Shown piece by piece: positions 42,738-64,000 of a stretch of DNA of 64,000 nt. The translations under genes and the position numbers were made by a program. The notes under the pieces were generated by a model. That model was not told the origin of the DNA and searched no databases. It saw only the letters and a program-made list of their open reading frames with translations. The stretch's first letter is position 1. Every line of letters begins with the position of its first letter. The DNA is from a virus (taxonomy: Duplodnaviria > Heunggongvirae > Uroviricota > Caudoviricetes): the IMG/VR virus record IMGVR_UViG_2721755712_000001, one strand, 5' to 3'.

Positions 42738-42802
42738 CATTTCATATTTACCCCCTATCTACTAATTCTATGATGTGCTCACTTGTTAGAAAGGAGCACA
42801 TC

Positions 42803-43607: not shown

Positions 43608-43753
43608 CGCTATCTACCTATAAATCTGAAGAGTTCAATAGGATGCATATCTGAAACACGCCCTCGACAATACCAAAAAGATTTGTCGAGGGCGTCGGGC
43701 TTTCCCTATGTCTGAACGATTAAATTTTACAGCAATTAAATATTTTGTATATG

Positions 43754-44554: not shown

Positions 44555-44656
44555 GAAACTTATTCCATAATCAATTTTTGGTGGAATGTACGGTTAGTCT
44601 GTCTACGCATCATAGAGATGTATATAATGACCAAAAAAGACTTAAAAAGGTAGACT

Positions 44657-45178: not shown

Positions 45179-45473
45179 ATCTATAAGGGTAATAACCGGC
45201 TAAGCCCGGTTATTATTTTACATGCCATTCGTTTAAAACTCTTTCAATGTCACTCTGTATAAATATATAAGGTTAAAAGCCCGAATTGATTATTTATTTA
45301 GGGAACACCTTCGACGATCTCGCTTTTATTTCTAGGACTTTCATCCCTGCAGAAAATTTAAAAAAAATACTTGCAATCTTTTTTCACGTATCGATAATTG
45401 AACTCGTCGAAAGCGAGCTAGCTAACGACAGTAAAAAATAAATTCATTTTAATTTTTCGTAAGGATGTCCATC

Positions 45474-46124: not shown

Positions 46125-46137
46125 TTAATGGAATCTT

Positions 46138-46158
46138 GCGCCCACTATGGGCGCTTTT
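46138..46158 (+). terminator. hairpin terminator GCGCCCA-CTA-TGGGCGC + T-tract (copy 1 of 2 identical)
   Basis: Identical 17-bp hairpin recurs at 46409-46431; the two copies bracket the small gene 46172..46402. Confidence 0.55.
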
Positions 46159-46171
46159 AAGGAGCTTAATC

Positions 46172-46402
46172 ATGTTTATTCTTATCGCTGGCGTTAACGT
46201 ACGTAATGAATATTTTGTCAATCGCATCGCTGGGATCGCTGGTTACGCTGGGCGCGCAGTCGAGTTTATCGATGAAACGACGCGCAAAATTGACTTATTG
46301 AGCGACCAGGAGCGAAAAAAAGCAGACGTGAATGACGCTGATATATTTTTAATGTTAAAAGCGTTTGTAGAAATGGGATTTGAAATCAGTTTACATAAAT
46401 AA
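46172..46402 (+). CDS. small hydrophobic/charged protein (hypothetical)
   Basis: ATG 46172 with AAGGAG RBS; N-terminal hydrophobic segment MFILIAGV; flanked by identical terminators. Confidence 0.35.
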   Translation: MFILIAGVNVRNEYFVNRIAGIAGYAGRAVEFIDETTRKIDLLSDQERKKADVNDADIFLMLKAFVEMGFEISLHK

Positions 46403-46408
46403 AATCGA

Positions 46409-46431
46409 GCGCCCACTATGGGCGCTTTTTT
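46409..46431 (+). terminator. hairpin terminator GCGCCCA-CTA-TGGGCGC + T6 (copy 2)
   Basis: Identical to the 46138-46158 hairpin; further terminator-like hairpins follow at ~46447-46480 and ~46511-46545. Confidence 0.55.
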
Positions 46432-46893
46432 CGTTTCCAATACTTCCACCATAACGCGCCAATGATGGCGCTTTTTTTATTGTCTTTGACTCAAGCCAAC
46501 AACATAAAAATAAGCGCCAAAATAACGCCATAGACGCGCTTTTATATCCTTACCAGTACATACCCATTACTTAGCGCATTAACGCGCTTAAATCGCGTTA
46601 TATTGCGTTATGGTGTATGGTTAATCATTGGCTTTTATTCTTGCTATGTGATCCGCGTTTAATTGTCGGCTCGGATCGGCATTTTGTTTTGTTCCGTATC
46701 CGCTCGCGTATTATGTGCGCGTGATTTTTCACATAATCACACCACTTAATCACATATGTGATTACGCTACGAAAGAAATCTGGATGTCTCAGGCGACGAA
46801 AGTCATCATAATTTTCCCCGCTCACCTGTCCGACAACCGCTGGTTGGATTCCACCAGCTTCCCGATGTTTTTTCTATATAAAGGCGAATGCAG

Positions 46894-47009
46894 CCGTTTC
46901 CCGAAAAAATCCTGGCCGTTTCCCGTCGGCTCATGAATACGTTCCTCGCCGTTTCTGAAAATTTCCCTGCGGCAGCTGGTTGCTATATAGAAAGGGCCGT
47001 TTCTGGCCC
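46894..47009. repeat. iteron-like direct repeat cluster A (CCGTTTCCCGAAAA-type units, ~4 copies)
   Basis: CCGTTTCCCGAAAAAATCC, CCGTTTCCCGTCGG, CCGTTTCTGAAAATTTCCC, CCGTTTCTGGCCC; same unit family as cluster B at 50311-50640. Confidence 0.6.
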
Positions 47010-47018
47010 TCTTCTCAG

Positions 47019-47501
47019 TTACACGCCATCAAGGATGTGGATGCGGTTGCTGGCGTATACATTCAGCATAAAGTTAGCGCAAAACAGTTTCCATGTATCA
47101 ACGCCAGCGGTATACGTAATGTTTTTGCATTTAATCGCATTGTTGGCGATCCGCATCCCCTGCGATACTGCTTCATCGTCGGAAAATTTGAACGACGATT
47201 GAGTTTTAATCCAGACAGAAATCTGCGTAGCGAACTCAATCAGCTTGGACTGGCAGAATCGCCCGGAGCGCACCGGAAAGACGAACGTTCCGAATCCAGA
47301 ATTTACCACATACGCTTTCTCAAATACCCGCGAGTAACGACGATTGCCAATGATGTCGCGTGCAATAATGCATTTTTCTTGTGCTGACAGTTCTACCGTC
47401 TCATTGTCGCGCCATGCACCAAGTACTCGTTTTTCAATGTCAGAGAACGTTACAGCGATATTGCCATGTGCGGGTGCGTTTACAGTAGCGATAAAATTCA
47501 T
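47019..47501 (-). CDS. hypothetical early protein
   Basis: 160 aa; class I promoter/operator upstream; iteron cluster A just downstream. Confidence 0.45.
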   Translation of the reverse strand: MNFIATVNAPAHGNIAVTFSDIEKRVLGAWRDNETVELSAQEKCIIARDIIGNRRYSRVFEKAYVVNSGFGTFVFPVRSGRFCQSKLIEFATQISVWIKTQSSFKFSDDEAVSQGMRIANNAIKCKNITYTAGVDTWKLFCANFMLNVYASNRIHILDGV

Positions 47502-47520
47502 GATTATTTCCTTATCGTAA

Positions 47521-47555
47521 ATAACAAATTGTTTTCTTGTTGGTGTTAATTATCG
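47521..47555 (-). promoter_or_regulatory. class I promoter/operator (minus strand CGATAAT-TAACACCAACAAGAAAACAATTTGTT)
   Basis: -10-like GATAAT with TTGACG 15 nt upstream, then a conserved leader ending in the AACAA-A-TTGTT palindrome. Confidence 0.5.
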
Positions 47556-47705
47556 TTGTACGAATAAGGCGTCAAAGTGGAAAGTTGCGGTAGCCGGACG
47601 AGAACAGGTGGGTTTGTCGGTTGCCTGGAGGTAAGAGGTTGGTGTTTTTAGCCTGCGGGAAACAGGATGGTCATTTAAGGCCACCAGCATTGGTGGCCTT
47701 AGTCT

Positions 47706-47993
47706 TTAGTGGAGCAGACCGATGTCGATGGTATCCCCTGAATCATCCACACGGATCATCAGCATGGCGAAGGCGTTTAGTGGATAGCTTGCGTGCCATT
47801 CAGGGAAGCGGTCATCTCGCATGAAGTCGGCAATGTCGTAAACGCAGCCCTCAAAGTGGAAGAATCGCGTGCTTACCTGCTCGTCATATTCCACATGATC
47901 CATTTCTTGCTGTTCTGTTTCCGGCAAGTCCAGCCATGATTCAAGGAATACATTTTGTGCTTTAGGGGTAATGGTGAAATCAGTCATGAGCAT
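47706..47993 (-). CDS. small acidic early protein (hypothetical; anti-defence/DNA-mimic candidate)
   Basis: ATG 47991-47993 with GAGGA RBS; 95 aa, strongly acidic; class I promoter upstream. Function is speculative. Confidence 0.45.
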   Translation of the reverse strand: MLMTDFTITPKAQNVFLESWLDLPETEQQEMDHVEYDEQVSTRFFHFEGCVYDIADFMRDDRFPEWHASYPLNAFAMLMIRVDDSGDTIDIGLLH

Positions 47994-48006
47994 ATCCTCA
48001 CTGCGT

Positions 48007-48040
48007 AAACATATTGTTTTCTTGTTGGTGTAATTATCGC
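48007..48040 (-). promoter_or_regulatory. class I promoter/operator (CGATAAT-TACACCAACAAGAAAACAATATGTTT)
   Basis: Same architecture as the 47521-47555 site. Confidence 0.5.
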
Positions 48041-48322
48041 AGTGTAGATAAGGCATAAAAGAAGTTAATACAGGCTGAATACACAAGAAAGGTTCTGGAA
48101 GTTGATAGCCAGGTTTCAAACTAACCTTCGGTTATTAAAAGTCATTTAAGACCACCAATGCTGGTGGCCTTAATAATTATCGCCCGATTACGCTAAGGAT
48201 CTTTTCCTCAACTGATTTGTTGTTGCGACTAAACTGCCTTGCGTATCTGATGACAGAAGAGGCGTTTTGCTTTCTGACCATCTCGGCTCTTTCCTTCAGG
48301 CGTTTCTTGAAATCGCCCATAT

Positions 48323-48697
48323 TTACCACCAGGCGCAGAAGGTCAGTCTGTTATTGTGAAAGTCGTGGTTCTTAATCAGATCTTCCACAAGCTCTTTCAA
48401 CTCCCCCACATCATGCCAGTAACCTTCATCGTACTCCTGACTGCCGAAGAAAAAACCTTCCCGGGTAGGCAAGTACTCTTCGCAATTACTTTCGTTTATG
48501 TGCATCAAATGAGCCTTCAGAAAACAAATGTCATTCATCGTTAATTCTAAAAGCTCACAATTTTCGACTTCACCTACGTTGCGCTCCATCCACCCAACGA
48601 GCGCATTGAACTTACGGAAGTAAGCAACCTGCTTTCTGGATGCCTCGTTATTCAGATCGTTTTTAGGCTGTGTCTCGATATAGATATCAAGTCCCAT
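48323..48697 (-). CDS. hypothetical early protein
   Basis: ATG 48695-48697 with AAGGAAA RBS; 124 aa; class I-like palindrome upstream at 48757-48773. Confidence 0.45.
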   Translation of the reverse strand: MGLDIYIETQPKNDLNNEASRKQVAYFRKFNALVGWMERNVGEVENCELLELTMNDICFLKAHLMHINESNCEEYLPTREGFFFGSQEYDEGYWHDVGELKELVEDLIKNHDFHNNRLTFCAWW

Positions 48698-48814
48698 GAT
48701 GGTTTCCTTATTAAGTTGCTTCAGTGAAATCATTTTCACAAATCAGATAAGGCAGAAAACAAATTGTTATCGGGTATAAGAAAATGGCGCGGTTTACGCG
48801 CCATTTAAAGAGGA

Positions 48815-49210
48815 TTAAGCGAATACGCTTTCAGGGATTAAGGTGTCGGCAGGAATGCCAGAGGTAATGCGCAGACCGTACTGGCCAATCCAGGTGGTGC
48901 TGGTGTTCAGGCTGGAGGCGAATACGGTGTTAACCATATTCATCATGGTTTCAAACACCTCTTCATCAACCTGGCGGAAGTAGTTCTCGATTTTCAGCAG
49001 CAGAGGGTCAGTTGCATCGAGAATGGACTGGTATTGAGTCGCGTACTCGCCGCCGGAGGCATCACCTTTACGCACGATCGTACTGGCCTGGACTTCGGCA
49101 CCAGTTTCGGTGTTGTACGTAACAACGGTGATTTTTGCCACATTCTTACCTTCGGCGGTTTCAGAGGCATAGTAAACATCAACTGTCAGTTTTTCGCGTT
49201 TAACGGTCAT
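48815..49210 (-). CDS. hypothetical protein
   Basis: ATG 49208-49210 with GGAGAG RBS; 131 aa; class II motif upstream at 49253-49269. Confidence 0.45.
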   Translation of the reverse strand: MTVKREKLTVDVYYASETAEGKNVAKITVVTYNTETGAEVQASTIVRKGDASGGEYATQYQSILDATDPLLLKIENYFRQVDEEVFETMMNMVNTVFASSLNTSTTWIGQYGLRITSGIPADTLIPESVFA

Positions 49211-49336
49211 TTCACTCTCCGTAGTGTATTGGTTATTTTTATATTCTATGATCGTAAGTATGTACTTACAATACAAAAAAGCCCCGTAAGGATGGCGGGG
49301 CTGTCGTACTGTCGACTAATTACCACTTGCACATTA

Positions 49337-49648
49337 TCAGGCTATTGCCATCACTGATGCTCTCTGAATTTCTTGCTGGGCCACGCGGTTAACTTCCATC
49401 AAGGCCAGTTCGAGCTGATGTTCCGGCCACATTCTTTGAAATGCCACCCATCCTTTTCCACGCTGGCGACGAACATTCATTACATAACGAGTAAAGGTGT
49501 TTTTATCGAAAGACACCGCTGTTTCACGGAACAGACGAATAGAAGTTCCATTGGCAACGATGTCTAGCAAAGTTAATTGAGCAACCAGTGCAGGCTTCTC
49601 TTTTCTCTTCTGGTCTTTGTCCAGACCAAGAACCAATGATTTTTTCAT
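49337..49648 (-). CDS. hypothetical early protein
   Basis: ATG 49646-49648 with GGAG RBS; 103 aa; class I palindrome AACAACTTGTTTTC at 49661-49674. Confidence 0.4.
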   Translation of the reverse strand: MKKSLVLGLDKDQKRKEKPALVAQLTLLDIVANGTSIRLFRETAVSFDKNTFTRYVMNVRRQRGKGWVAFQRMWPEHQLELALMEVNRVAQQEIQRASVMAIA

Positions 49649-49801
49649 CACAACTCCGTAAACAACTTGTTTTCTCAATGGCGTAAATAATACCAGTAAG
49701 AAAACGGCTACAAAGCATAATGATCAGGTGCATGATCGATATGCAGGTTCCTCCCAGCGGCTATAGAGAAATTAAGCCAGCAATGCTGGCTTTGGTTGGG
49801 A

Positions 49802-50131
49802 TTACGCGAATACCTCAAGAAACTCCTGAACGTCCCAATGCTGGACGAGGTGAAGATAGACCTTAGAAATCACGTCATTTTCGCTATCGCATGTGAAGTA
49901 GTACTTCTGGCTGCGGTTGTATGTGTCCACACAAAATTCGCTCATATCCATAAAGTCAGCATCTTCACCCATGTCGCAAATCATCAAAGCAGGTGCGTCA
50001 TCACGAGTCATCAGCTCAAGCACCCACCGCGAATTGATCAGAGTGGAAGACCAACCTTCTAACTCATAAAACTGATCAAACTCTTTTTGAGTTAATTTCT
50101 TGATTTGGTTGATGTCGATATTTGCAAACAT
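49802..50131 (-). CDS. small acidic early protein (hypothetical; anti-defence candidate)
   Basis: ATG 50129-50131 with AAGGA RBS; 109 aa acidic; class I promoter/operator at 50144-50177 (the track's upstream ATG lies inside the operator). Confidence 0.45.
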   Translation of the reverse strand: MFANIDINQIKKLTQKEFDQFYELEGWSSTLINSRWVLELMTRDDAPALMICDMGEDADFMDMSEFCVDTYNRSQKYYFTCDSENDVISKVYLHLVQHWDVQEFLEVFA

Positions 50132-50310
50132 AAAGCAATCCTTAAACAACATGTTTTCTTGATGGTGTTATTATCGCAATAACGCACAGGCGAAAAAGGA
50201 TTTTATTCCGGTGAATGTGGTTTTGGCAGTGAGTTTTCAGGTTCAGTACCGAGTACACTTTTTACATTATTCTGATTTAGTGGCCGAAAGTGGCTGGTGG
50301 GCAGAATAAT

Positions 50311-50640
50311 CCTCTCCCCGAAAACCTACTGAAATCGATTGTGACCCGTTGGCTGTCTGGCACAATTACGCTGTAGCTGGGCATTCAGAGGGAATCCAGC
50401 GGTAAGCAAGTCCGCCTACGTGAGCGCCTCTCTTCTTCCCGCACATTACAGGTGGGTAGCCGCAACTCTCCCTCTCGCTATACCGGTACGCCACCGTTCC
50501 TGAACCGGCATCGAGCCTTCTCCCGAAATCCACACAGGCAACTCGACCGTTTCCCTGAAAACCTCCAGCCGTTCCCCGAAGGCAACCCAGCCGTTTCTGT
50601 AGCGGGATGCAGCCTTTTCCCTGTATGGACCGAAGGCTGA
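50311..50640. repeat. iteron-like direct repeat cluster B (~7 degenerate 22-bp units, consensus CCGTTTCCC-GAAAA...CAGC)
   Basis: e.g. CGTTTCCCTGAAAACCTCCAGC / CGTTCCCCGAAGGCAACCCAGC / CGTTTCTGTAGCGGGATGCAGC in register at 22-bp spacing; non-coding (track ORFs here are low-complexity artefacts). Confidence 0.6.
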
Positions 50641-50779
50641 CCGTAGGGGTGTTACGGGGGATAAAATCAGGAGTTGAATAAATACGAAAAAGGAGGCGAC
50701 ACCCCTCCTTCCCTCTCCACTTATACATACCTGGCTTCTTCGCTATACATGTTGTGTTTTCTTCGTGTTTTATCTGTCT

Positions 50780-51570
50780 CAACCTCTCTATAGGCGTTAA
50801 TGCTCACTCCTTCCAGAACGTTCTATACGGCGACTATTTCTGTTGGTGAATTGGGTGTGTTGTTTTCTCTGTCGGTGTATGTGGTTTCGTTAGTTTTGCG
50901 GTGATTCTTCTATGGGGTGTTCTCGTCGTTTTGGTGATTGTTCTTCTCCGTGTATGGAGTAATGGCAGGTGGGCGATTGCTTTCGTTATTGTGTTTGAGT
51001 TGTTTGTCTGGAGTGTGTGAAAGGCTTTTGTAGTTATTCGTGTATTGGGTAATGGCGTTTCCCGTGATTGTTACGCTTCGTGTCTTTTGGGATTGAGAGA
51101 AACCTTGCGGTTACAGGCTTCGTTGGGGTTTCAGCGGTTCAGGTGTTTCTTCGCTGTTTGGGTAATGGCGTGTCGTGGGTATCGCGCGTATGAATGTTTT
51201 CGGATTGCCTGTGAAAGTTAGGTTGGTTGTCCGGTAGCCTGAGAAGAAGAGGTGGGTCTTTTCGGTAGCCTGCCATAAAGAGGTTGGTTGTTATGGGGAA
51301 TGGCATATGTGTTATTTAGTTGTTTTGTTATAGCTGAAAATAAGTTGTTTATATAGTTATGTAACGCAATGGGAGTGATTTTGAGCGTGTGTTTTTGTTG
51401 GTAGTGTGTTGGGTCGTCTGTGGTGAAAATTGGACGCTGTGGCGCTGTCTGCTGCGTAGAATTACGGGTATAAGAAGTGATGTGTGAATACGTCAATTTT
51501 TTAGACCAAATCGGGTGAAAGCGTTGACGTTTCGTTGATCTGTTATTTAGTTGTTTTCTTATTGGTATAA
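50780..51570. repeat. GT-skewed non-coding tract (~800 bp) with several degenerate direct-repeat families
   Basis: Plus strand almost only G/T; repeated GGGTAATGGCG-type units (50951, 51041, 51150, 51290), CGGTAGCCTG x2 (51230-51275), TGTTATTTAGTTGTTTT x2 (51311, 51541); no credible ORF. Confidence 0.6.
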
Positions 51571-51703
51571 ACAACGTTAACCTATTGATATTTAAAGGTG
51601 TGATTGCAGGTATGGAAGAAGAGTAGTGGCGATCAACGGATTCTTATAGAAAAGAATCAAATTGTGACCGCCATTATCAACTGATTGATTAAGCTAATTA
51701 CAC

Positions 51704-52894
51704 TCAAACATCCCCGTTCTTAATCCACTGCCTGACTTGCTCGTCTTGTGCGACTTCTTTCTCATGTTTGGCAATATACAAGTCTGGCAATAGGGGTGGA
51801 GCGAATTCAGGCTCTGTCGCACGCCACTTTTCATATGCGTCACGCATGGATTTCTCAACATTCCAATGCTCCAACTCTTGGTATTCAATCGGCCAGTTAT
51901 CCTGCAATCTCTTCACTGCATTAGCCAGGTCGTATCGGAAGTAAGGATTAAGACCAATGAAATTACCAGCCAGCATGTCATCAACCTCCTTCACTCTGGC
52001 AATCTTAGAAAACTTACCAATAGCAATGTTGAGGTCCCAATCTGACACGAACAACAAAAGTGCTGCAAATGCCAGAAACTTAGCTTCCCCGTATGCTCTG
52101 TCGCTAACCGTTTTTGTCTGAAACTCAATGTAATTGCCCATCACAAAACTAGTAAGCTTACAGGTCTTACTTATCTCGTCCTCCAAATGCGATGGATCGA
52201 GAATTGTGCGGTCACGATTATTGTTTATGTGTTCTAAGATTACAGCAATGTCTCTATGTGAGACTGAAATTTCACGCAATTGCTGGAGAGTCTTGATGTG
52301 AACTCTTAGCACCTCTTTGTCAATCGCACGCTTCCAAGAAAAACCAGGCACAGTAACCTGAATGGGCGCGAAAGGTAGAATATCAGGAGTTGTCCATGCT
52401 AGATATGCATCACGTAACCCACTAATATAATAAAGCCAGTCTAAATGCTCGCTTTCTAACCATATTTCAAATGTGGAATCCTTTCGCTTATTGAAGAACC
52501 ATTCCCTCATCTGCCACATTTTTTCTTGAGTAAATATCCCTTCCTGTATGCCGGCACAGACCAGCTTTCGTATTACCTGCGAATACTTTGTTCGATCTTT
52601 TGTGAATGAGACAAGGTGCTGCTTCACCTCAGATGTTAGTCTATCTCCATAGAAATCACATGATGGATGATGGCCTTGACCATCTTCACCGGTAAATCTG
52701 AAATGCGCCTTCTTGTGATAGCCACCATTCCTAGTGGCTCTAACGAACGAACCACCTCCAACTTTGCAAATGGGGCAGATGATATCGTCACGGGCAATAG
52801 CATGAACCGAGCTGTCATCTAAATTCTTTAGCGCCAAGTACTGCTCAGGATCGACTTCTTTTTGTAACGATTTTGAAAAAGCGGTATCAGTCAT
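51704..52894 (-). CDS. hypothetical protein with N-terminal Cys/His zinc-ribbon-like motif (candidate replication initiator or DNA-binding protein)
   Basis: CPICK...HHPSC cluster near N-terminus; ~396 aa from ATG 52892-52894 (GGAG RBS); directly adjacent to the iteron/GT-rich region. Function inferred from context only. Confidence 0.45.
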   Translation of the reverse strand: MTDTAFSKSLQKEVDPEQYLALKNLDDSSVHAIARDDIICPICKVGGGSFVRATRNGGYHKKAHFRFTGEDGQGHHPSCDFYGDRLTSEVKQHLVSFTKDRTKYSQVIRKLVCAGIQEGIFTQEKMWQMREWFFNKRKDSTFEIWLESEHLDWLYYISGLRDAYLAWTTPDILPFAPIQVTVPGFSWKRAIDKEVLRVHIKTLQQLREISVSHRDIAVILEHINNNRDRTILDPSHLEDEISKTCKLTSFVMGNYIEFQTKTVSDRAYGEAKFLAFAALLLFVSDWDLNIAIGKFSKIARVKEVDDMLAGNFIGLNPYFRYDLANAVKRLQDNWPIEYQELEHWNVEKSMRDAYEKWRATEPEFAPPLLPDLYIAKHEKEVAQDEQVRQWIKNGDV

Positions 52895-53064
52895 TCCAAG
52901 CTCCGAGCAAGGGGTTATTTGTTCAATTATCATTCGGAATTATTTACTGTCTCGCCCAGTTTCACGTCATTTTATTCCCTAGTCTAGCTTTTCTAGGGTA
53001 TACAGCTTATTACAAGCTCCTCATTATTAACTGTTTCCGTAACTCATTGATCCGCTTATACACT

Positions 53065-53364
53065 CTACCAACACCAGCACTCAAGCCCTTCAACGATCGG
53101 CGCACCACAATCAAAATGTACAGAGTCAAAGCCTACATCAAGTACTTTCTGAATGTTAGCAATCGCGCCTTCGGATATACCATATCGACGCAAGTCGTCT
53201 TTCCAGACATCATCCTGTAACCCGGCGTGGACAATACAACCGCCATCAATTTGTGAAACCCAATCCAGCTCATTGCTTGCGATCATGAATCGGCGAGCAT
53301 CTTCCTCTGATGTATGAGATGAACTGATCAATGCCACCTGGTAGGCTTGGGTAATGTTCAACAT
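53065..53364 (-). CDS. hypothetical protein (last element-type gene before the chromosomal junction)
   Basis: ATG 53362-53364 with GGAGTGG RBS; two class I palindromes upstream (53378-53392, 53427-53442). Confidence 0.4.
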   Translation of the reverse strand: MLNITQAYQVALISSSHTSEEDARRFMIASNELDWVSQIDGGCIVHAGLQDDVWKDDLRRYGISEGAIANIQKVLDVGFDSVHFDCGAPIVEGLECWCW

Positions 53365-53376
53365 TTCAACCACTCC

Positions 53377-53445
53377 GAAACAATTTGTTTTCTTATGTGG
53401 CTTATTATCTCAATCAACAAAAGGTAGAAAACAAATTGTTTTAGG
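53377..53445 (-). promoter_or_regulatory. tandem class I operator-like palindromes (GAAACAATTTGTTTTC and GAAAACAAATTGTTTT) with GAGATAAT -10-like element between
   Basis: Two copies of the AACAA-N-TTGTT dyad 35 bp apart upstream of gene 53065..53364. Confidence 0.5.
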
Positions 53446-53479
53446 GCTTGTGTAAATCAGGAGGGATTGTGTCTATATG

Positions 53480-53512
53480 AAAATGCCCAGCGTGTTGCCG
53501 GGCATTGCGAAC
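53480..53512 (-). terminator. metG terminator (stem-loop with one mismatch + T-run)
   Basis: Minus-strand ATGCCCGGCAACACGCTGGGCAT followed by TTTCAT, ~15 nt after the metG stop. Confidence 0.5.
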
Positions 53513-53525
53513 AGAGGTTGCTTAA

Positions 53526-55559
53526 TTACTTAACCTGGTGGCCAGGTTTAGCACCAGCATCCGGGCTTAACAGGAAGATATCTTTCCCGCCGGGGCCAGC
53601 AGCCATCACCATACCTTCGGAGATGCCGAAGCGCATCTTACGCGGAGCCAGGTTAGCCACCATAATGGTGTGACGACCAATCAGTGCCTGTGGGTCTGGA
53701 TAAGCAGAACGGATGCCTGAGAAGACATTGCGTTTTTCACCGCCGAGATCCAGCGTCAGGCGCAGCAGTTTGTCAGAACCTTCAACAAACTCTGCGTTTT
53801 CGATCAGTGCCACGCGCAGGTCAACTTTGGCAAAGTCGTCAAAGGTGATGGTTTCCTGAATCGGGTCGTCTGCCAGCGGGCCAGTAACTGGCGCGGCAGT
53901 AGCTTTCACTTCTTCTTTAGACGCTTCCACCAATGCTTCCACCTGTTTCATGTCGATACGGTTATACAGTGCTTTGAACGGATTCACTTTATGGCCCAGC
54001 AGCGGTTGCTGGATGCCATCCCAGGTCAGTTCCGTATTCAGGAATGCTTCCGCACGTTCTGTCAGTTTCGGCAGTACCGGTTTCAGGTAAGTCATCAGCA
54101 CGCGGAACAGGTTGATGCCCATTGAGCAAATCGCCTGCAGGTCAGCATCGCGACCTTCCTGTTTTGCGACTACCCAAGGAGCCTGCTCGTCGACATAGCG
54201 GTTAGCCAGGTCAGCCAGTGCCATGATTTCACGGATAGCTTTACCAAATTCGCGGCTTTCCCACGCTTCACCAATCACTTCAGCGGCATCAGTGAAGGTT
54301 TTGTACAACTGCGGGTCAGCCAGCTCGCTTGCCAGCACACCGTCAAAACGCTTATTGATAAAGCCAGCGTTACGGGACGCCAGGTTAACCACTTTGTTCA
54401 CGATATCGGCATTCACACGCTGAACGAAATCCTCCAGGTTGAGATCGATATCATCAATGCGCGAAGAGAGTTTCGCAGTGTAGTAGTAACGCAGGCTGTC
54501 AGCGTCAAAATGATTCAACCAGGTGCTGGCTTTAATAAAGGTGCCGCGAGACTTGGACATCTTCGCGCCGTTCACCGTCACATAGCCGTGAACAAACAGG
54601 TTGGTCGGCTTGCGGAAGTTGCTGCCTTCCAGCATGGCAGGCCAGAACAGGCTGTGGAAGTAAACGATATCTTTACCGATGAAGTGGTACAGCTCGGCGG
54701 TGGAGTCTTTCTTCCAGTATTCATCGAAGCTGGTAGTGTCGCCGCGCTTGTCGCACAGATTCTTGAAGGAACCCATGTAGCCAATCGGTGCGTCCAGCCA
54801 GACGTAGAAATATTTACCCGGCGCGTTCGGAATTTCAAAACCGAAGTAAGGTGCGTCGCGGGAGATATCCCACTGTTGCAGACCAGATTCAAACCACTCC
54901 TGCATTTTGTTTGCCACCTGCTCCTGCAACGCACCGCTGCGGGTCCATGCCTGCAACATTTCGCTGAAAGAGGGCAGATCAAAGAAGAAGTGTTCAGAAT
55001 CACGCATTACCGGGGTAGCACCAGAAACCACCGATTTCGGCTCGATCAGTTCAGTCGGGCTGTAGGTCGCGCCGCAAACTTCACAGTTATCGCCGTATTG
55101 ATCTGGCGCTTTACATTTCGGGCAGGTGCCTTTCACAAAACGATCCGGCAGGAACATGCCTTTTTCCGGGTCGTACAACTGAGAGATAGTGCGATTTTTA
55201 ATAAAACCGTTCTCTTTCAGGCGAGTATAGATAAGCTCAGACAACTGACGGTTCTCTTCGCTGTGCGTCGAGTGATAGTTGTCATAGCTGATGTTAAAGC
55301 CTGCGAAATCAGTCTGGTGTTCCTGACTCATTTCGCCAATCATCTGCTCCGGTGTGATACCAAGTTGCTGTGCTTTCAGCATGATCGGCGTACCGTGGGC
55401 ATCGTCGGCACAGATGAAATTAACCTCGTGGCCGCGCATTCGCTGGTAACGAACCCAGACATCAGCCTGGATGTGCTCCAGCATATGGCCGAGGTGGATT
55501 GAGCCGTTAGCGTACGGCAGCGCGCACGTCACCAGAATTTTCTTCGCGACTTGGGTCAT
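53526..55559 (-). CDS. metG: methionyl-tRNA synthetase
   Basis: 677 aa from ATG 55557-55559 ([29 protein letters not shown]...); HIGH-type and KMSKS motifs; matches Escherichia-type MetG as recalled. Confidence 0.97.
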
Positions 55560-55716
55560 AGTAGGCATTACTTCTTTGTAGTGAAAAGGGGCTTGATAGT
55601 AACAAAATGGCCTTATGTCTGCCATGTGATAACAGCATTTCTCATAAATGATTAAATGTCGCAGCTGGAGTACACTACAAGGCGACAATTGCGCAAATTA
55701 AAATAAAGGAGACGGG

Positions 55717-56817
55717 ATGAGCGAGTCCAAATCGCCGGATGCCCTGAGAGCAATGGTAGCCGGTACGCTGGCTAATTTTCAGCACCCAACCCTGAAACAC
55801 AACCTGACTACGCTTAAAGCGTTACACCATGTTGCGTTGATGGATGACACACTGCATGTCGAACTAATCATGCCTTTCGTGTGGAATAAGCCTTTTGAAG
55901 ACCTGAAAGAGCAATGTAGTGGTGATCTGCTCCGTATCACTGGCGCAAAGGCTATTGACTGGAAGCTGTCGTACAACATTGCCACGCTTAAGCGCGTCAA
56001 AAACCAACCAGGCATTAATGGTGTTAAGAATATTATCGCCGTAAGCTCAGGCAAGGGCGGTGTAGGCAAATCGTCCACAGCAGTAAACTTGGCACTGGCT
56101 TTGGCTGCTGAAGGTGCGAAAGTTGGTATTTTGGATGCCGATATCTATGGTCCATCAATTCCAACCATGCTGGGCGCGGAAAACCAACGTCCAACCTCAC
56201 CTGACGGTACTCACATGGCACCTATCATGTCTCATGGCCTGGCAACCAACTCTATTGGTTATCTGGTCACCGACGACAATGCAATGGTGTGGCGTGGACC
56301 GATGGCCAGCAAGGCGCTGATGCAGATGTTGCAGGAAACTCTATGGCCTGATCTGGACTATCTCGTTCTCGATATGCCGCCGGGCACTGGTGATATTCAG
56401 TTGACGCTGGCGCAGAACATTCCTGTAACTGGTGCGGTTGTGGTAACTACGCCGCAAGACATCGCGCTGATCGATGCGAAGAAAGGCATTGTGATGTTCG
56501 AAAAAGTCGAAGTGCCGGTACTGGGTATCGTCGAAAACATGAGTGTGCATATTTGCAGTAACTGCGGTCATCACGAGCCAATTTTTGGCACCGGTGGCGC
56601 ACAGAAACTGGCCGAGAAATACAACACGCAGTTGTTAGGCCAAATGCCACTTCATATCTCTCTTCGTGAAGATCTGGATAACGGAACACCAACCGTTATT
56701 AGTCGTCCAGATAGCGAATTTACGGCTATTTATCGTGACCTCGCAGATCGCGTTGCTGCCCAAATGTATTGGCAAGGTGAAGTAATACCTGGCGAAATCG
56801 CATTCCGCGCAGTGTGA
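55717..56817 (+). CDS. apbC: Fe-S cluster carrier ATPase ApbC/Mrp
   Basis: 366 aa; Walker A SGKGGVGKSS; C-terminal CxxC (CSNCGHHEP); divergent from metG as in enterobacterial chromosomes. Confidence 0.95.
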   Translation: MSESKSPDALRAMVAGTLANFQHPTLKHNLTTLKALHHVALMDDTLHVELIMPFVWNKPFEDLKEQCSGDLLRITGAKAIDWKLSYNIATLKRVKNQPGINGVKNIIAVSSGKGGVGKSSTAVNLALALAAEGAKVGILDADIYGPSIPTMLGAENQRPTSPDGTHMAPIMSHGLATNSIGYLVTDDNAMVWRGPMASKALMQMLQETLWPDLDYLVLDMPPGTGDIQLTLAQNIPVTGAVVVTTPQDIALIDAKKGIVMFEKVEVPVLGIVENMSVHICSNCGHHEPIFGTGGAQKLAEKYNTQLLGQMPLHISLREDLDNGTPTVISRPDSEFTAIYRDLADRVAAQMYWQGEVIPGEIAFRAV

Positions 56818-56820
56818 TAA

Positions 56821-56845
56821 AAAGGCGGTGCATTGCACCGCCTAA
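56821..56845. terminator. bidirectional terminator between apbC and the umuD'-like gene
   Basis: GGCGGTGCA-T-TGCACCGCC hairpin flanked by A-run and T-containing flank. Confidence 0.55.
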
Positions 56846-56854
56846 TCAGTTCTC

Positions 56855-57244
56855 CTACATCACGGGACAATCATCAAACTCGCCACTTCTTGCGTCGTTG
56901 ATAATGTGAGTGATCACACCAAACACGGCATTGCTGCTCGTGCATCCATCGTCATCCTTTGGCAATGCTTCCTTCTTACCGGTTCTTAAATCCTCCAGAT
57001 GCTGACGTGGATACTTCCGGTATCTTTTTACGCGATATTCCCCATCCAGAGCGCATACAAGCAGAGAACCATCAACCGGGGTAAGTGAGGAATCGACCAC
57101 CAGCAATGCACCCTGTAATATTCCCTCACGATGATGACTATCAGCTGCCCTCATGAAGTAGGTCGCTGAAGGATGTCTAATTATCTGCTGATCAAGAGAA
57201 ATACGGCTCTCAGCATAATCCGCCGCAGGAGAAGGGAAGCCCAT
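56855..57244 (-). CDS. UmuD'-like S24 peptidase-family protein (begins at the position equivalent to the UmuD autocleavage site; no umuC partner)
   Basis: MGFPSPAADY... aligns with UmuD from Gly25 onward as recalled; Ser (AADSH) and Lys (EYRVKRYRK) at the expected catalytic positions; LexA box 19 nt upstream; divergent extended C-terminus. Confidence 0.65.
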   Translation of the reverse strand: MGFPSPAADYAESRISLDQQIIRHPSATYFMRAADSHHREGILQGALLVVDSSLTPVDGSLLVCALDGEYRVKRYRKYPRQHLEDLRTGKKEALPKDDDGCTSSNAVFGVITHIINDARSGEFDDCPVM

Positions 57245-57262
57245 AGCGTTTTCACCTCAGAA

Positions 57263-57282
57263 TACTGTTTATCCATACAGTA
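57263..57282 (-). promoter_or_regulatory. LexA (SOS) box TACTGTATGGATAAACAGTA upstream of the umuD'-like gene
   Basis: CTGT-N8-ACAG matching the SOS-box consensus TACTGT(AT)4ACAGTA; GAGGTGA RBS between box and ATG. Confidence 0.7.
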
Positions 57283-57408
57283 TACATTAAAGATGCTTGA
57301 AGTGTGCAATAGCGCGATGCTTTGCGCTCGCCTGGTGGTGCGTTATTTTTTGGCTATATCTTCTTTCTGATATACCGGATCGTTTCCTTTTGGCAGCAGG
57401 AGGCTTAA

Positions 57409-57594
57409 CTACCGGTAGTGCCGTAGCCGTTCCATGAAATAGGTGCGCAGGTTCTCAGGTTGCTCACGGGCTAGCTGTTCCGCTATGACGGGTATGTTCA
57501 ATCGCTCTTTGTAGGCAACCCCCCTGGCAGCCAGGTCAACGTTAACTTTATTCCTTTCTTCCTGGCTTTTGGCTGCTATGTTCCAGTTGCTCAT
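57409..57594 (-). CDS. hypothetical small protein (61 aa)
   Basis: ATG 57592-57594, 2 nt after the stop of the upstream small ORF; charged/helical composition. Confidence 0.3.
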
Positions 57595-57596
57595 GT

Positions 57597-57812
57597 TTAA
57601 GGCTCACATTTCCAGATGGTATTCTGAACACCCGAACCGGGCGTAAGATGAGGGTTAGCGTTCGCACTATGCTGATATACAGCTTTGGACTTTCCATATT
57701 GCTGACAGGCTTTATCTGCGGTTTTTTGCAGGCAGTCCAGCCCATACCAGCCATCTGACTGGATGCTAACATTTTCGCCGTCATTGTATTGCACCATCGC
57801 ACACCCAGACAT
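57597..57812 (-). CDS. hypothetical small Cys-rich protein, possible lipoprotein remnant
   Basis: In-frame upstream extension encodes a signal-peptide-like stretch ([16 protein letters not shown]) with no in-frame start, suggesting a damaged lipoprotein gene. Confidence 0.25.
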
Positions 57813-57945
57813 AGCTAAAATCGCACCGACAATACCGCTTTTACAAAAAGCTCTAATTAGGTCATTCGTTACCTAATGTCCGAACTGCTAAAGCATCCAA
57901 GTTGCTGTAGAATCACATCCAATTACTTAAACCTGAAATAAGTGG

Positions 57946-59508
57946 ATGAAAATGACAAGTATTCAACAACGTGCAGAGCTTCATCGCCAGATCTGGCAAA
58001 TTGCTAACGATGTCAGGGGTTCAGTCGATGGATGGGATTTTAAGCAGTACGTTTTGGGCGCGCTTTTTTACCGTTTTATCAGCGAAAATTTTTCCAGTTA
58101 TATTGAAGCCGGTGATGACAGTATCTGTTATGCGAAACTGGATGACAGCGTAATTACTGATGACATTAAAGACGATGCCATCAAAACTAAAGGCTACTTC
58201 ATCTACCCCAGTCAGCTTTTCTGCAACGTAGCTGCGAAAGCAAATACTAATGACAGACTGAATGCAGATTTAAACAGCATCTTCGTTGCTATCGAAAGTT
58301 CTGCTTACGGTTATCCTTCAGAAGCTGACATCAAAGGTTTGTTTGCTGATTTCGATACCACCAGTAACCGCCTGGGTAACACCGTTAAAGATAAAAATGC
58401 CCGCTTGGCTGCGGTTCTGAAAGGGGTTGAAGGGCTAAAACTTGGTGACTTCCATGAACATCAGATTGACCTGTTCGGTGACGCCTATGAGTTCCTGATT
58501 TCTAACTATGCGGCGAATGCCGGTAAGTCCGGCGGCGAGTTCTTTACACCGCAGCACGTCTCTAAGCTGATTGCACAACTGGCTATGCACGGGCAGACCC
58601 ACGTTAACAAAATCTACGACCCGGCAGCAGGCTCCGGTTCGCTGTTGTTGCAGGCGAAAAAACAGTTTGATGACCATATCATCGAAGAAGGTTTTTTTGG
58701 TCAGGAAATCAACCATACGACCTATAACCTGGCGCGTATGAACATGTTTTTGCACAACATCAACTACGACAAGTTTGATATCAAGCTGGGTAATACACTG
58801 ACTGAGCCGCACTTCAGAGATGAAAAACCGTTTGATGCCATCGTTTCTAACCCGCCGTATTCGGTGAAATGGATTGGCAGCGATGACCCGACGCTGATTA
58901 ACGATGAACGTTTTGCCCCGGCTGGCGTTCTGGCCCCCAAATCCAAAGCTGACTTTGCGTTTGTATTACATGCGCTGAACTATCTTTCGGCCAAAGGTCG
59001 CGCTGCGATTGTCTGCTTCCCAGGCATTTTTTACCGTGGCGGCGCGGAGCAGAAAATCCGTCAGTATCTGGTCGACAATAACTATGTCGAAACCGTGATT
59101 TCACTGGCACCGAATCTGTTCTTTGGCACCACTATTGCCGTCAATATTCTGGTGCTGTCTAAACATAAAACGGATACCAAAGTTCAGTTTATTGATGCCA
59201 GCGAACTGTTCAAAAAAGAGACTAACAACAACATTCTGACCGATGCTCATATCGAACAGATTATGCAGGTATTTGCCAGCAAGGAAGATGTTGCTCATCT
59301 GGCGAAATCTGTTGCGTTTGAGACTGTTGTCGCGAATGACTATAACCTGTCGGTGAGCAGCTATGTGGAAGCGAAAGATACTCGCGAAATTATCGATATC
59401 GCTGAGCTGAATGCTGAGCTGAAAACCACGGTCAGCAAAATCGACCAGTTGCGTAAAGATATTGATGCGATTGTTGCTGAGATTGAAGGTAGCGAGGTAC
59501 AGGCATGA
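57946..59508 (+). CDS. hsdM: type I restriction-modification system methyltransferase subunit (type IC, EcoR124-like)
   Basis: 520 aa, [26 protein letters not shown]...; N6-adenine MTase motifs (NPPY in SNPPYS, AdoMet motif DPAAGSGS); near-identical to EcoR124I HsdM as recalled. Confidence 0.95.
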
Positions 59509-60752
59509 GCGAGCTGAGTTATCTGGAAAAACTGCTGGATGGGGCTGAGGTTGAGTGGGTAGCATTAAATAAATTAGCAACTTTTTTAAAAGGGAAGTCT
59601 TTACCTAAAGAAAAAATAACTCCAGATGGCAATAGATATTGTATTCATTACGGTGAGCTTTTCACTCATTATGGTCCCATAATTGACAAAGTATGCTCAA
59701 AAACAAACCAAGCAATCAATGAGTCAATTCTATCTGAAAAAAATGATGTTCTAATGCCAACGTCAGACGTTACACCAAGAGGTTTGGCTACAGCTAGTTG
59801 CATTCAAGAAAGTGGCGTTATTTTAGGCGGCGATATTTTGATTATTAGATGCTCTGGTGTTGATGGTAGATATCTAAGTAATTTCATAATAAATAACAAA
59901 AAAAAGATATTGCAAATGGTTAAAGGTTCTACTGTTTATCATTTGTATGCTAAAGATATAGGTAAATTACTTATCCCCATCCCTTGCCCCAACAACCCGG
60001 AAAAGTCGCTGGCTATCCAGTCTGAAATCGTCAGGATTCTGGATAAATTTACTGCGCTTACCGCTGAGCTTACCGCTGAGCTTAGCATGCGTAAAAAACA
60101 ATACAACTACTATCGCGACCAGTTGTTGAGTTTTAAAGAGGGTGAGGTTGAGTGGAAAGCTTTGGGGGAAATTGGTGAAGTTCGTATGTGTAAACGAATC
60201 CTAAAATCACAAACATCTTCTGAGGGAGAGATTCCATTTTATAAAATTGGGACATTTGGTAAGGAACCCGATTCCTATATATCTAGAAAACTATTTAATG
60301 AATTTAAAGAAAAATATAGTTATCCTAAAGTTGGCGAAGTATTGATTTCTGCCAGTGGGACCATCGGCAGGACTGTTATATTTGATGGTAGGGAATCATA
60401 TTTCCAGGATAGCAATATTGTCTGGATTGAAAATAATGAAAAAATAGTTTTAAATAAATATTTATTCTATTTCTATAAAATAGCAAAATGGGGAATATCT
60501 GAAGGTGGAACTATTAAAAGACTTTATAATGATAACTTAAGAAAACTTATGATACCAGTACCATTTCCTGATTCTCCTGAAAGATCGCTAGTTGAACAAC
60601 AAAAAATAGTGAAATTACTGGATAAATTTGATGCTTTGACCAATTCCATCACCGAAGGTCTTCCGCGTGAAATCGAGTTGCGCCAGAAACAATACGAGTA
60701 CTATCGTGATTTACTGTTCAGTTTTCCCAAACCTGAAACTATCAGTAACTAA
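59505..60752 (+). CDS. hsdS: type I R-M specificity subunit (type IC) with two TAEL repeats in the central spacer
   Basis: 415 aa; two target-recognition domains with AT-rich codon usage; central conserved region with LTAELTAEL (12-bp tandem repeat at 60056-60079); ATGA overlap with hsdM. Confidence 0.9.
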
Positions 60753-60873
60753 TTGACCATTGCTACCGACCGGATCACCTTAACATCCGGTCTATATAGA
60801 GACTATTTTTTACACGCCGGAAGTCGCCCTTAAAGCCCTTCCGGCCCTTGCCAGACGGCACAAAGGATGCGCT

Positions 60874-63800
60874 ATGACTCATCAGACACACACCATTGCT
60901 GAATCCAATAACTTTATCGTTCTTGATAAGTACATCAAAGCCGAGCAAACAGGCGACAGCTACCAGAGCGAATCGGACCTGGAACGTGAACTGATTCAGG
61001 ATCTGCGGAATCAGGGCTATGAATTTATTTCCGTAAAATCTCAGTCGGCGATGCTGGCCAACGTTCGGGAACAGCTTCAGAACCTCAATGGTGTGGTGTT
61101 TAATGACAGCGAATGGCGGCGTTTCACGGAGCAGTATCTGGATAACCCGAGCGATGGCATCCTGGATAAGACCCGTAAAATCCATATCGACTATATTTGC
61201 GACTTTATTTTTGATGACGAGCGTCTTGAGAACATCTATTTGATAGATAAAAAGAATCTCATGCGCAACAAGGTGCAGATTATCCAGCAGTTTGAACAGA
61301 CGGGTTCTCATGCTAACCGTTATGACGTCACGATCCTGGTTAATGGCTTACCGCTGGTACAAATCGAACTGAAAAAGCGCGGCGTGGCGATTCGTGAGGC
61401 CTTTAACCAGATACATCGTTACAGCAAAGAGAGTTTTAACAGCGAAAATTCTCTGTTTAAGTATCTGCAACTGTTTGTCATTTCCAACGGCACCGATACC
61501 CGTTACTTTGCCAACACGACAAAGCGCGATAAAAACAGTTTTGACTTCACCATGAATTGGGCGAAATCAGACAACACGCTGATTAAAGACCTCAAAGACT
61601 TTACCGCCACCTTTTTCCAGAAACATACCCTGCTTAATGTCTTAGTGAACTACAGCGTATTCGATGTTAGCCAAACGCTACTGGTGATGCGACCGTACCA
61701 GATTGCCGCCACTGAGCGCATTCTGTGGAAAATTAAGAGTTCCTTTACAGCGAAGAACTGGTCAAAACCGGAAAGCGGTGGGTATATCTGGCACACTACC
61801 GGTTCAGGTAAAACCCTCACCAGCTTTAAAGCCGCGCGTCTGGCAACAGAGCTGGACTTTATTGATAAAGTCTTCTTCGTGGTCGACAGGAAAGACCTCG
61901 ATTACCAGACCATGAATGAATATAAGCGTTTTTCGCCAGACAGCGTCAACGGCTCGGAAAATACCGCAGGTCTTAAACGCAATCTGGATAAGGACGATAA
62001 CAAAATTATCGTCACCACTATTCAGAAACTTAATAACCTGATGAAAGCAGAAAGCGACCTGCCTGTATACAATCAGCAAGTGGTGTTTATATTTGATGAA
62101 TGTCACCGCAGCCAGTTTGGAGAAGCGCAGAAAAACCTGAAGAAGAAATTCAAACGCTATTATCAGTTTGGTTTTACCGGCACACCTATTTTCCCGGAAA
62201 ACGCCTTAGGCTCAGAAACGACCGCCAGCGTATTTGGTCGTGAATTGCATTCGTATGTAATTACCGATGCGATTCGTGATGAAAAAGTGCTCAAATTCAA
62301 GGTGGACTACAACGATGTGCGGCCACAGTTTAAATCTTTAGAGACAGAAACCGACGAGAAAAAACTGAGTGCGGCTGAAAATCAGCAGGCATTTCTTCAT
62401 CCCATGCGTATACAGGAAATTACGCAATATATTCTGAATAACTTCCGCCAGAAGACCCACCGTACTTTCCCAGGTTCCAAAGGCTTTAATGCCATGCTGG
62501 CAGTGAGTAGCGTGGATGCCGCGAAAGCCTATTACGCGACGTTTAAACGGTTACAAGAGGAAGCAGCTAATAAATCGGCTACCTATAAACCGCTGCGTGT
62601 TGCAACAATCTTCTCCTTTGCCGCCAATGAAGAACAAAATGCCATTGGTGAAATTTCCGATGAAACTTTTGATACCAGCGCAATGGACAGCAGTGCTAAA
62701 GAGTTTCTTGACGCTGCAATTCGTGAGTATAACAGCTATTTTAAAACTAACTTCAGCACCGACAGTAACGGTTTTCAGAACTACTATCGTGATTTAGCCC
62801 AACGGGTTAAAAATCAGGATATCGATCTGTTAATTGTCGTTGGGATGTTTTTAACCGGCTTCGACGCTCCAACATTGAACACGCTATTCGTCGATAAAAA
62901 CTTGCGTTTTCACGGCCTGATGCAGGCATTCTCCCGTACCAACCGCATTTATGACGCTACTAAAACCTTCGGTAACATCGTCACTTTTCGGGATCTGGAA
63001 CGCTCAACCATTGATGCCATAACGCTGTTTGGTGATAAAAATACTAAAAATGTGGTGTTAGAAAAGAGTTATGCTGAGTATATGGAAGGCTTTACAGATG
63101 CTGCCACTGGTGAAGCTAAACGCGGCTTTATGGCAGTAGTTTCAGAACTGGAACAACGGTTCCCTGACCCTGCCAGTATTGAAAGTGAAAAAGAGAAGAA
63201 AGACTTCGTAAAACTGTTTGGTGAATACCTGCGTGCCGAGAACATCCTGCAAAACTATGATGAATTTGCCACGCTGAAAGCCCTGCAACAAATCGATCTT
63301 AGCGATCCTGTTGCGGTAGAAAAATTCAAAGCAGAACATTATGTGGATGATGAAAAGTTCGCTGAATTGCAAACAATTCGTCTCCCTGCTGAACGCAAGA
63401 TTCAGGATTATCGTTCTGCCTATAACGATATTCGCGACTGGCAGCGCCGTGAGAAAGAAGCTGAGAAAAAAGAGAAATCAACCACTGACTGGGATGACGT
63501 AGTTTTTGAGGTCGATTTGCTGAAGTCTCAGGAAATAAACCTGGATTATATCCTTGGACTGATTTTCGAACACAACAGACAAAATAAAGGCAAGGGCGAA
63601 ATGATCGAAGAGGTCAAACGCTTAATTCGTTCAAGCCTGGGGAACCGGGCGAAAGAGGGCCTGGTGGTCGATTTTATTCAGCAAACGAACCTGGATGATT
63701 TACCAGACAAAGCCAGTATCATTGAGGCATTCTTTACGTTTGCTCAACGCGAACAGCAACGTGAAGCAGAAGCATTGATAAAAGAAGAAAATCTCAATGA

Positions 63801-63990
63801 AGAGGCGGCGAAACGCTATATTCGCACGTCTTTAAAACGCGAATACGCCACCGAAAATGGCACAGAATTAAACGAGACATTACCAAAACTTAGTCCGTTA
63901 AACCCGCAATATAAAACGAAAAAACAGACCGTTTTCCAGAAAATCGTCACGTTTATTGAAAAGTTCAAAGGAGTAGGTGGACAGATATAG
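60874..63990 (+). CDS. hsdR: type I R-M restriction endonuclease/translocase subunit (type IC, EcoR124-like)
   Basis: 1038 aa; SF2 motor motifs (GSGKT Walker A, DECHRSQ DEAH-like) and N-terminal nuclease region; length and sequence match EcoR124I HsdR as recalled. Confidence 0.95.
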
Positions 63991-64000
63991 TGTATTAATC

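Follow-up and report, generated by a model that had tools for sequence, protein, structure and literature searches.

The 64,000-nucleotide stretch of DNA analysed here (the window; IMG/VR virus record IMGVR_UViG_2721755712_000001) ends on three intact plus-strand open reading frames (ORFs), hsdM, hsdS and hsdR, which encode the modification, specificity and restriction subunits of a type I restriction-modification (R-M) system. The original prediction had described a chromosomally placed, EcoR124-like type IC system whose hsdS carries a repeat that can switch specificity. Its gene coordinates proved exact, and neither a frameshift nor a premature stop was found in the three genes, which are arranged as follows.

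57946-59508, + strand: hsdM, 520 amino acids (aa), type IC N6-adenine methyltransferase subunit, intact ORF
59505-60752, + strand: hsdS, 415 aa, specificity subunit, intact, 4-nucleotide overlap with the hsdM stop
60753-60873: hsdS-hsdR gap, 121 bp, with a hairpin of 8-bp stem (60768-60792) and one weak promoter-like match (60780-60809)
60874-63990, + strand: hsdR, 1038 aa, restriction/translocase subunit, intact ORF

The hsdM start annotated by RefSeq on a 99.9%-identical plasmid corresponds to position 57952. HsdM consists of the Pfam domains N6_Mtase (2.5e-121) and HsdM_N, carries the S-adenosylmethionine site DPAAGSG (residue 225) and the NPPY motif (residue 302), and matches the EcoR124 M protein (7bst_D) at all but 5 of 519 residues (1151 bits). 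HsdR possesses the domains HSDR_N, SWI2_SNF2/ResIII, T1R_D3-like and EcoR124_C, and aligned to EcoR124I HsdR (2w00) across all 1038 aa (2274 bits), with about 16 substitutions counted in the ~970 residues of the alignment shown. Its PD-(D/E)xK nuclease region (from residue 149), GSGKT Walker A motif (310) and DECH DEAD-box (408) are all present. HsdS contains two Methylase_S domains, and PADLOC classified the three proteins as type I methyltransferase (MTase_I), specificity subunit and restriction endonuclease, respectively. Membership of a type I family is judged by sequence similarity, complementation and antibody cross-reaction. Both their similarity and the EcoR124_C domain place HsdM and HsdR in the EcoR124 sequence family, and the order hsdM-hsdS-hsdR, with hsdR set apart by an intergenic region, is that of type IC and of its prototypes EcoR124I and EcoR124II (plasmids R124 and R124/3). 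Given the sequence identity to the solved EcoR124 proteins, we regard the family assignment as settled, in agreement with the original prediction.

The 121-bp gap contains no ORF in any of the six frames, only stops and short fragments, so that no prrC-type insert lies between hsdS and hsdR, as had been predicted. This distinguishes the system from EcoprrI (prrABCD), which is also of type IC but has an embedded anticodon nuclease. By analogy with other type I systems, a separate hsdR promoter may be located in the gap.

The chromosomal placement did not survive comparison with complete genomes. Window positions 56800-64000 are 99.9% identical to circular Escherichia coli plasmids of ~110 kb, and the entire window, a few variable spots excepted, is colinear with the circular 112-kb E. 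coli plasmid pYLMB30c at 98.3-98.8% identity. PHROGs matches of the large window ORFs revealed a portal protein, a large terminase, a tape measure protein, a tail fibre, a J-like tail tip, a DnaB-like helicase and a primase. The annotation of pYLMB30c adds ParB partition genes and a capsid protein and, beyond the window, rnhA, dfrA51, thyA and nrdAB. Such a circular replicon of ~100-115 kb, with siphovirus-type head, tail and packaging genes alongside partition and replication genes, corresponds to the SSU5-like phage-plasmids. Phage Cyrano (108 kb) matches window positions 37579-57284 at 97-99%; similarity to SSU5 itself amounts to ~78% over a few kb only. A tRNA scan of the window found none, leaving no tRNA-linked integration site, and no chromosome junction was found anywhere in the 64 kb. 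We therefore classify the carrier as an SSU5-like phage-plasmid, a supergroup placement made by gene content and literature grouping. For SSU5 clade J phage-plasmids of E. coli and Shigella, a 2025 preprint describes R-M and PrrC systems, and it also reports PrrC-bearing type IC cassettes on both P1-like and SSU5 clade J elements (bioRxiv 10.1101/2025.09.12.675607). Overall, we estimate at roughly 90% the probability that hsdMSR is a complete, ordinary and apparently functional type IC (EcoR124-family) R-M system carried as cargo by an SSU5-like E. coli phage-plasmid.

Target recognition and the TAEL repeat of HsdS

HsdS aligned to the solved EcoR124 HsdS (7bst_A) only in the N-terminal, central and C-terminal conserved regions. 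It has the layout of a type IC specificity subunit, with the distal conserved helix represented at both start and end and a central helix bearing the TAEL repeat, and the gene can be divided as follows.

59559-59975, + strand: target-recognition domain 1 (TRD1; HsdS residues ~19-157), approximate, bounded by the loss of DNA homology to other type IC hsdS alleles
59976-60165, + strand: central conserved region (first coiled-coil helix, D1), a residue-for-residue match to EcoR124 HsdS, PIPCP..LGEIG
60057-60080, + strand: two tandem 12-bp units CTTACCGCTGAG, encoding (L)TAE(L)TAE(L), that is, TAEL twice
60166-60617, + strand: target-recognition domain 2 (TRD2; HsdS residues ~222-371), approximate, without DNA homology to the P1-like phage allele there
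60618-60752, + strand: distal conserved region (second coiled-coil helix, D2), matching the C-terminus of EcoR124 HsdS almost exactly

The left bound of TRD1 was set where homology to the P1-like phage allele stops (59558), and the right bound where alleles sharing only the 3' two-thirds of hsdS begin to match (hsdS nucleotide 472, position 59976). The central conserved region is kept across ~1,150 E. coli records. TRD2 is 25% identical to TRD1. A search of PDB sequences with TRD1 returned no relative at E<=1, and the same search with TRD2 gave marginal matches only (1yf2, E=0.11; 7bst_A, E=0.35). Neither TRD is thus recognizably homologous to those of EcoR124 HsdS. Since both differ from the TRDs of EcoR124I, the specificity is predicted not to be that of EcoR124I, nor the half-sites to be GAA and RTCG. 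The close resemblance to the R124 system that had been claimed accordingly holds for HsdM, HsdR and the conserved parts of HsdS and fails for both TRDs, and the carriers differ as well, EcoR124 being borne on a conjugative R plasmid. The machinery is, as far as homology can tell, that of EcoR124 and the DNA specificity another one, which would make the system a new specificity member of a well-known family. Full-text search with the RefSeq accession WP_001293038 found no paper.

The two CTTACCGCTGAG units had been placed at 60056-60079; the repeat and its reading as TAELTAEL were correct, and its actual position is 60057-60080. A partial third copy, CTTAGC, follows directly, and Tandem Repeats Finder reported 60052-60084 with period 12 and 2.8 copies. 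TAELTAEL occupies the same place in the central conserved helix of 7bst_A with the same residues, from which we conclude that the repeat is not a chance one. Immediately 5' of the first unit, position 60056 is a private synonymous single-nucleotide polymorphism (SNP) of the window (Ala184, GCG against GCA in seven other copies); a 104-nucleotide query across it was matched above 99.0% by no complete E. coli genome in the collection.

In the EcoR124 enzymes the number of units sets the length of the spacer in the recognition site, as the original prediction had stated: TAEL x2 gives GAA N6 RTCG (EcoR124I) and TAEL x3 gives GAA N7 RTCG (EcoR124II) (PMC3874165, PMC7383803), the two being interconverted by unequal crossing-over at the 12-bp repeat (PMC3874165). 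EcoprrI has three units, and so has EcoDXXI (pDXX1), which shares the type IC scaffold with the two-unit window system; the TRDs of EcoDXXI can be exchanged with those of EcoR124I, with spacing set by TAEL number (PMC3874165). Phase-variable type I systems, including hsdS shufflons and those whose hsdS or hsdM contains long simple-sequence repeats, have in common with the present one an in-frame hsdS repeat whose copy number changes specificity (PMC7383803). They differ from it in that only two 12-bp units (2.8 copies, no long tract) and one hsdS copy occur here: tblastn of HsdS against the window found no second copy, and no recombinase was noticed at the locus. For these reasons the TAEL tract points to a low-frequency evolutionary toggle operating through unequal crossing-over, and not to programmed phase variation.

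Repeat alleles and the mosaic cassette

Sequencing of a population for two- and three-unit alleles had been suggested as a check, for which complete public genomes were used as a stand-in. The hsdS allele with the same TRDs was present at full length in 39 E. coli records. Intact two-unit genes of 1248 bp accounted for 34 of them and genes of 1260 bp for three; one further copy has a 4-bp deletion and one is interrupted by IS1. All three 1260-bp alleles contain exactly one additional CTTACCGCTGAG, with identical TRDs and an identical encoded protein, mirroring the difference between EcoR124I and EcoR124II (PMC3874165). They are carried by the SSU5-like pGD31-F25, the 64.5-kb plasmid pYUSHP31-2 and a 97.8-kb plasmid. 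The first of these differs from the two-unit pEC17CM6_2 by 6 mismatches, the 12-bp gap and a 7-bp gap over 41.3 kb, and pYUSHP31-2 differs from the two-unit pYUSHP6-3 by 3 mismatches, the 12-bp gap and a 1-bp gap over 15.3 kb. Within both near-isogenic pairs the cassette shows 0-1 SNPs, while the cassettes of the three three-unit backbones are 105-180 SNPs apart. These data fit repeated, independent gain or loss of one unit.

Beyond this allele, type IC hsdS genes were surveyed with synthetic two-unit and three-unit DNA queries, the two-unit bands being blurred by two-piece alignments. The three-unit query matched 537 records at 80-90% identity, where sampled rows span 104 nucleotides and hence two units, and 611 records at >=90% identity, some of them partial matches. 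By this rough count, two-unit and three-unit alleles each make up about half of the ~1,150 records from complete E. coli genomes. A census from protein matches was rejected as biased, as the ranking favours the two-unit length of the query and clustering at 90% merges the variants.

In two SSU5-like relatives, the plasmid of strain HCP6S3_I1 and NZ_CP029421.1, hsdS is inactivated, in one by the gene-splitting 4-bp deletion and in the other by IS1A. An N-terminal half-HsdS left by truncation might in principle dimerise with itself and recognise a palindromic site, like EcoR124I(delta50) or NgoAV.

The unit that is shared between backbones comprises the three genes and a short leader.

57847-63990, + strand: hsdMSR cassette as shared between backbones, ~100 bp of leader plus three genes

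Homology to the cassettes of phage vB_EcoM-673R5, a 64-kb plasmid and a 98-kb plasmid begins at 57847-57852 and ends at the hsdR stop, and a chromosomal copy matches from 57929 on. The cassette of the P1-like phage vB_EcoM-673R5 is 95-97% identical outside the TRDs and has different TRDs. In an alignment of eight cassette copies, hsdS showed 0 SNPs among the seven other backbones, the window adding its one synonymous change, while hsdM and hsdR showed 52-189 SNPs between backbones, clustered in the 5' half of hsdM and in hsdR. The identical tract reaches somewhat past hsdS in every comparison, with varying end points. An invariant hsdS within diverged hsdM and hsdR, together with the variable tract ends, indicates that this allele moved recently by homologous recombination via the conserved flanking genes. 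In nature, such a mosaic parallels the in vitro swapping of TRDs and modules between EcoR124I and EcoDXXI (PMC3874165).

The same hsdS allele is chromosomal in 8 other complete genomes, among them strain AR_0137, where it belongs to a tRNA-Ile-associated island. In the 64-kb plasmids pYUSHP31-2 and pYUSHP6-3 (locus 4400-14500), the cassette resides inside a P1 fragment (partial pdcB, phd/doc) bounded by insertion sequence (IS) elements, and adjoins a SMODS nucleotidyltransferase and an S-4TM effector (a CBASS-like pair). This locus looks like a small defence island built from phage-plasmid debris.

The cargo slot beside humD

To the left of the cassette, the window carries the following features.

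53526-55559, - strand: metG, plasmid-borne backbone gene, annotated on pYLMB30c and phage Cyrano
55717-56817, + strand: apbC/mrp, plasmid-borne backbone gene, annotated on pYLMB30c and phage Cyrano
56855-57244, - strand: humD, UmuD'-like Peptidase_S24 of P1 type, named HumD in relatives; left anchor of the slot
57293-64000: variable cargo slot (hot, an unannotated ORF and hsdMSR), extending ~50 bp beyond the window end
57409-57594, - strand: hot, P1-type homologue of the DNA polymerase III theta subunit (Pfam DNA_pol3_theta, 1.3e-28), amber-shortened
57597-57812, - strand: unannotated ORF, 71 aa, between hot and the hsdM leader, a P1-derived part of the slot that may not be a gene

The window is shared with phage Cyrano up to 57284, past humD. 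Where pYLMB30c has the equivalent of 57293-~64051, phage Cyrano carries 5.9 kb of genes unrelated to it, between flanks that are 96-98% identical. An island next to a umuD'-like gene in an otherwise conserved region had been predicted; the S24 peptidase neighbour (HumD) is indeed there, and the setting is a phage-plasmid cargo slot. The 71-aa ORF (57597-57812) had no Pfam match, and PADLOC found no defence-family match for hot, humD or this ORF.

The genes humD and hot are ~87% identical to those of phage P1. The block humD-hot-hsdMSR (56856-63990) matched the 93-kb P1-like plasmid of ECE228 at 96.45% over 7,135 bp without a gap. There the block is in its native P1 context, beside phd/doc, pdc, pac-type terminase genes and the c1 repressor, in contrast to the graft beside apbC in the window; the hsdS of ECE228 is a 99.0% match with a different protein accession. 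Queries specific for junctions found hot-hsdM in 57 complete E. coli genomes, a few of them P1-like, and the plasmid-type apbC-humD junction in 205, so that carriers of the former are at most about a quarter of the latter. These queries replaced a count by coverage: 76 records at >=80% coverage were rejected as a number of cassette-bearing SSU5-like elements, because the cassette alone makes up 85% of that query. Most likely, a P1-like phage-plasmid was the donor of hot-hsdMSR to the SSU5-like lineage, with the humD common to both serving as the anchor for recombination, a direction of transfer that we infer from these contexts.

The apbC gene of the E. coli chromosome is only ~82% identical to that of the window. 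As on the chromosome, metG and apbC of the window are divergent, and an old capture of the chromosomal locus is the likeliest origin of the pair.

Elsewhere, the backbone varies at several spots. Positions 3775-5725 hold an IS21-family insertion missing from the otherwise colinear pYLMB30c, with plus-strand ORFs at 3861-4883 (IstA-like rve integrase with a helix-turn-helix) and 4880-5662 (IstB ATPase; Pfam IstB_IS21, 7.7e-112). PADLOC matched IstB to DrmD, apparently a cross-match that does not indicate DISARM. The segment 51688-53073 is common to neither pYLMB30c nor phage Cyrano, and its ORF 51704-52933 (- strand, 409 aa) matched only PHROG 12525 (unknown function) and no Pfam family. Within the 1342-aa tail-fibre ORF 11040-15068 (- strand), positions 10883-13583 diverge from pYLMB30c, with only 333 bp matching at 91%, which is probably a host-range swap between otherwise 98%-identical elements. 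Coordinate transfer from pYLMB30c places a TacA antitoxin/GNAT (TacT-like) acetyltransferase toxin pair at ~8587-9386 (ORF 8865-9386, + strand), which would be a plasmid-maintenance module.

Alternative readings and significance

Following the EcoR124I paradigm, a complex HsdM2-HsdS1 would methylate a bipartite target at one adenine per half-site, and on joining this complex HsdR would form an ATP-driven translocase-nuclease cutting DNA that does not bear this methylation. The unit of host plus plasmid would be protected from incoming phages and plasmids, and the element's own DNA, as plasmid or packaged, would be shielded by methylation. Two TAEL units would hold the methylated adenines at the EcoR124I-type separation and a third would add 1 bp; the number of N written for the site depends also on the half-sites. 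Both the enzymatic activity and the spacing rule are transferred to this allele from EcoR124I. The cassette would have reached its place beside humD from a P1-like phage-plasmid as part of the humD-hot-hsdMSR block, and the hsdS allele has also recombined into diverged hsdM/hsdR cassettes on replicons of several types.

Several observations weigh against a complete, working system of this description. The promoter scan of the region gave fewer promoter-like sites than the shuffled mean, and none between hot and hsdM. Codon 62 of hot is TAG (stop at 57409-57411) where relatives have CAG, leaving 61 aa in place of 83 aa, and pYLMB30c annotates the same 186-bp hot. The disrupted hsdS genes of two relatives (4-bp deletion; IS1) indicate that the cassette is not always maintained. 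The 120 type IC HsdS relatives returned by the protein search are all generically named, none of characterised specificity. The window ends 10 bp past hsdR, and the right edge of the slot was taken from the 99.9%-identical plasmid. The lack of an outstanding promoter, the amber codon in the adjoining hot and the relatives with damaged hsdS would suit a silent or decaying cassette, methylase-only or inactive, a passenger heading to loss. We consider this improbable in view of the three full-length ORFs with intact catalytic motifs, and of an hsdS that shows 0 SNPs in seven other backbones and is intact with two units in 34 of 39 copies, which fits a working allele that has spread recently. More improbable still is insertion of a type IC island into the chromosome, next to the metG-mrp locus there. 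It would explain why metG and apbC/mrp, which are also neighbours on the E. coli chromosome, lie directly left of the cassette (their use as chromosomal markers led to the original placement), and the same hsdS allele does occur on chromosomes, as in AR_0137. It conflicts with the divergence of chromosomal apbC, with the colinearity to a circular 112-kb plasmid whose genes serve phage head, tail and packaging functions besides partition and replication, and with the lack of a chromosome junction.

TAEL x2 may be a fixed structural spacer, with the three-unit alleles as accidents or as one variant passed on by gene conversion, a view that we hold possible without favouring it. Two perfect units are far below classic phase-variable tracts, and only 3 of the 37 intact same-allele copies have a third. 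Moreover, spread by gene conversion instead of three slippage events could explain the three-unit alleles, because hsdS is identical in all backgrounds, they encode one protein, and recombinational transfer leaves no trace, which also weakens the case for independent changes of repeat number. Against a fixed spacer stand the near-isogenic partners of two three-unit plasmids (0-1 cassette SNPs, 3-6 mismatches over 15-41 kb) on backbones that are themselves far apart, the comparable abundance of two-unit and three-unit type IC alleles in E. coli, and the documented interconversion of EcoR124I and EcoR124II (PMC3874165). The original description of the allele as poised for switching thus gains indirect support from the occurrence of the same hsdS with three units in three backbones, and is qualified by gene conversion. 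As for the beneficiary, the phage-plasmid itself might profit most, through a stabilised plasmid state or the exclusion of rival, near-identical phage-plasmids and other plasmids, which we rate as rather doubtful. The cassette occupies a mobile-element cargo slot and recurs on P1-like, SSU5-like and other plasmids, and the methylation patterns of near-isogenic plasmids would diverge through repeat number alone; type I systems are, on the other side, classical anti-phage defences, the same allele is also chromosomal, and the present data do not distinguish the beneficiary.

The finding leaves the understanding of type IC enzyme function unchanged, and such cargo has already been reported on this type of carrier. 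For annotation, it means that metG and apbC beside a defence cassette are no proof of a chromosomal location, since SSU5-like phage-plasmids carry their own copies. The locus is a further example of a phage-plasmid restriction system in a swappable slot, here one block common to the P1-like and SSU5-like families, and identical TRDs combined with either two or three TAEL units, on backbones that are almost the same, offer a natural experiment, outside EcoR124I and EcoR124II, for the rule that an additional helical turn means +1 bp in the spacer. Tentatively, and as a proposal more likely to fail than to hold, the TAEL toggle may be in use in nature on phage-plasmids, with sibling elements restricting each other, while a single hsdS allele (0 SNPs) has recently spread through recombination across the diverged hsdM/hsdR cassettes of P1-like, SSU5-like and other plasmids and of chromosomes. 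If this is true, near-isogenic siblings one 12-bp unit apart would write and police different methylation patterns, and type IC hsdS would be a shared, fast-moving specificity module across phage-plasmid families.

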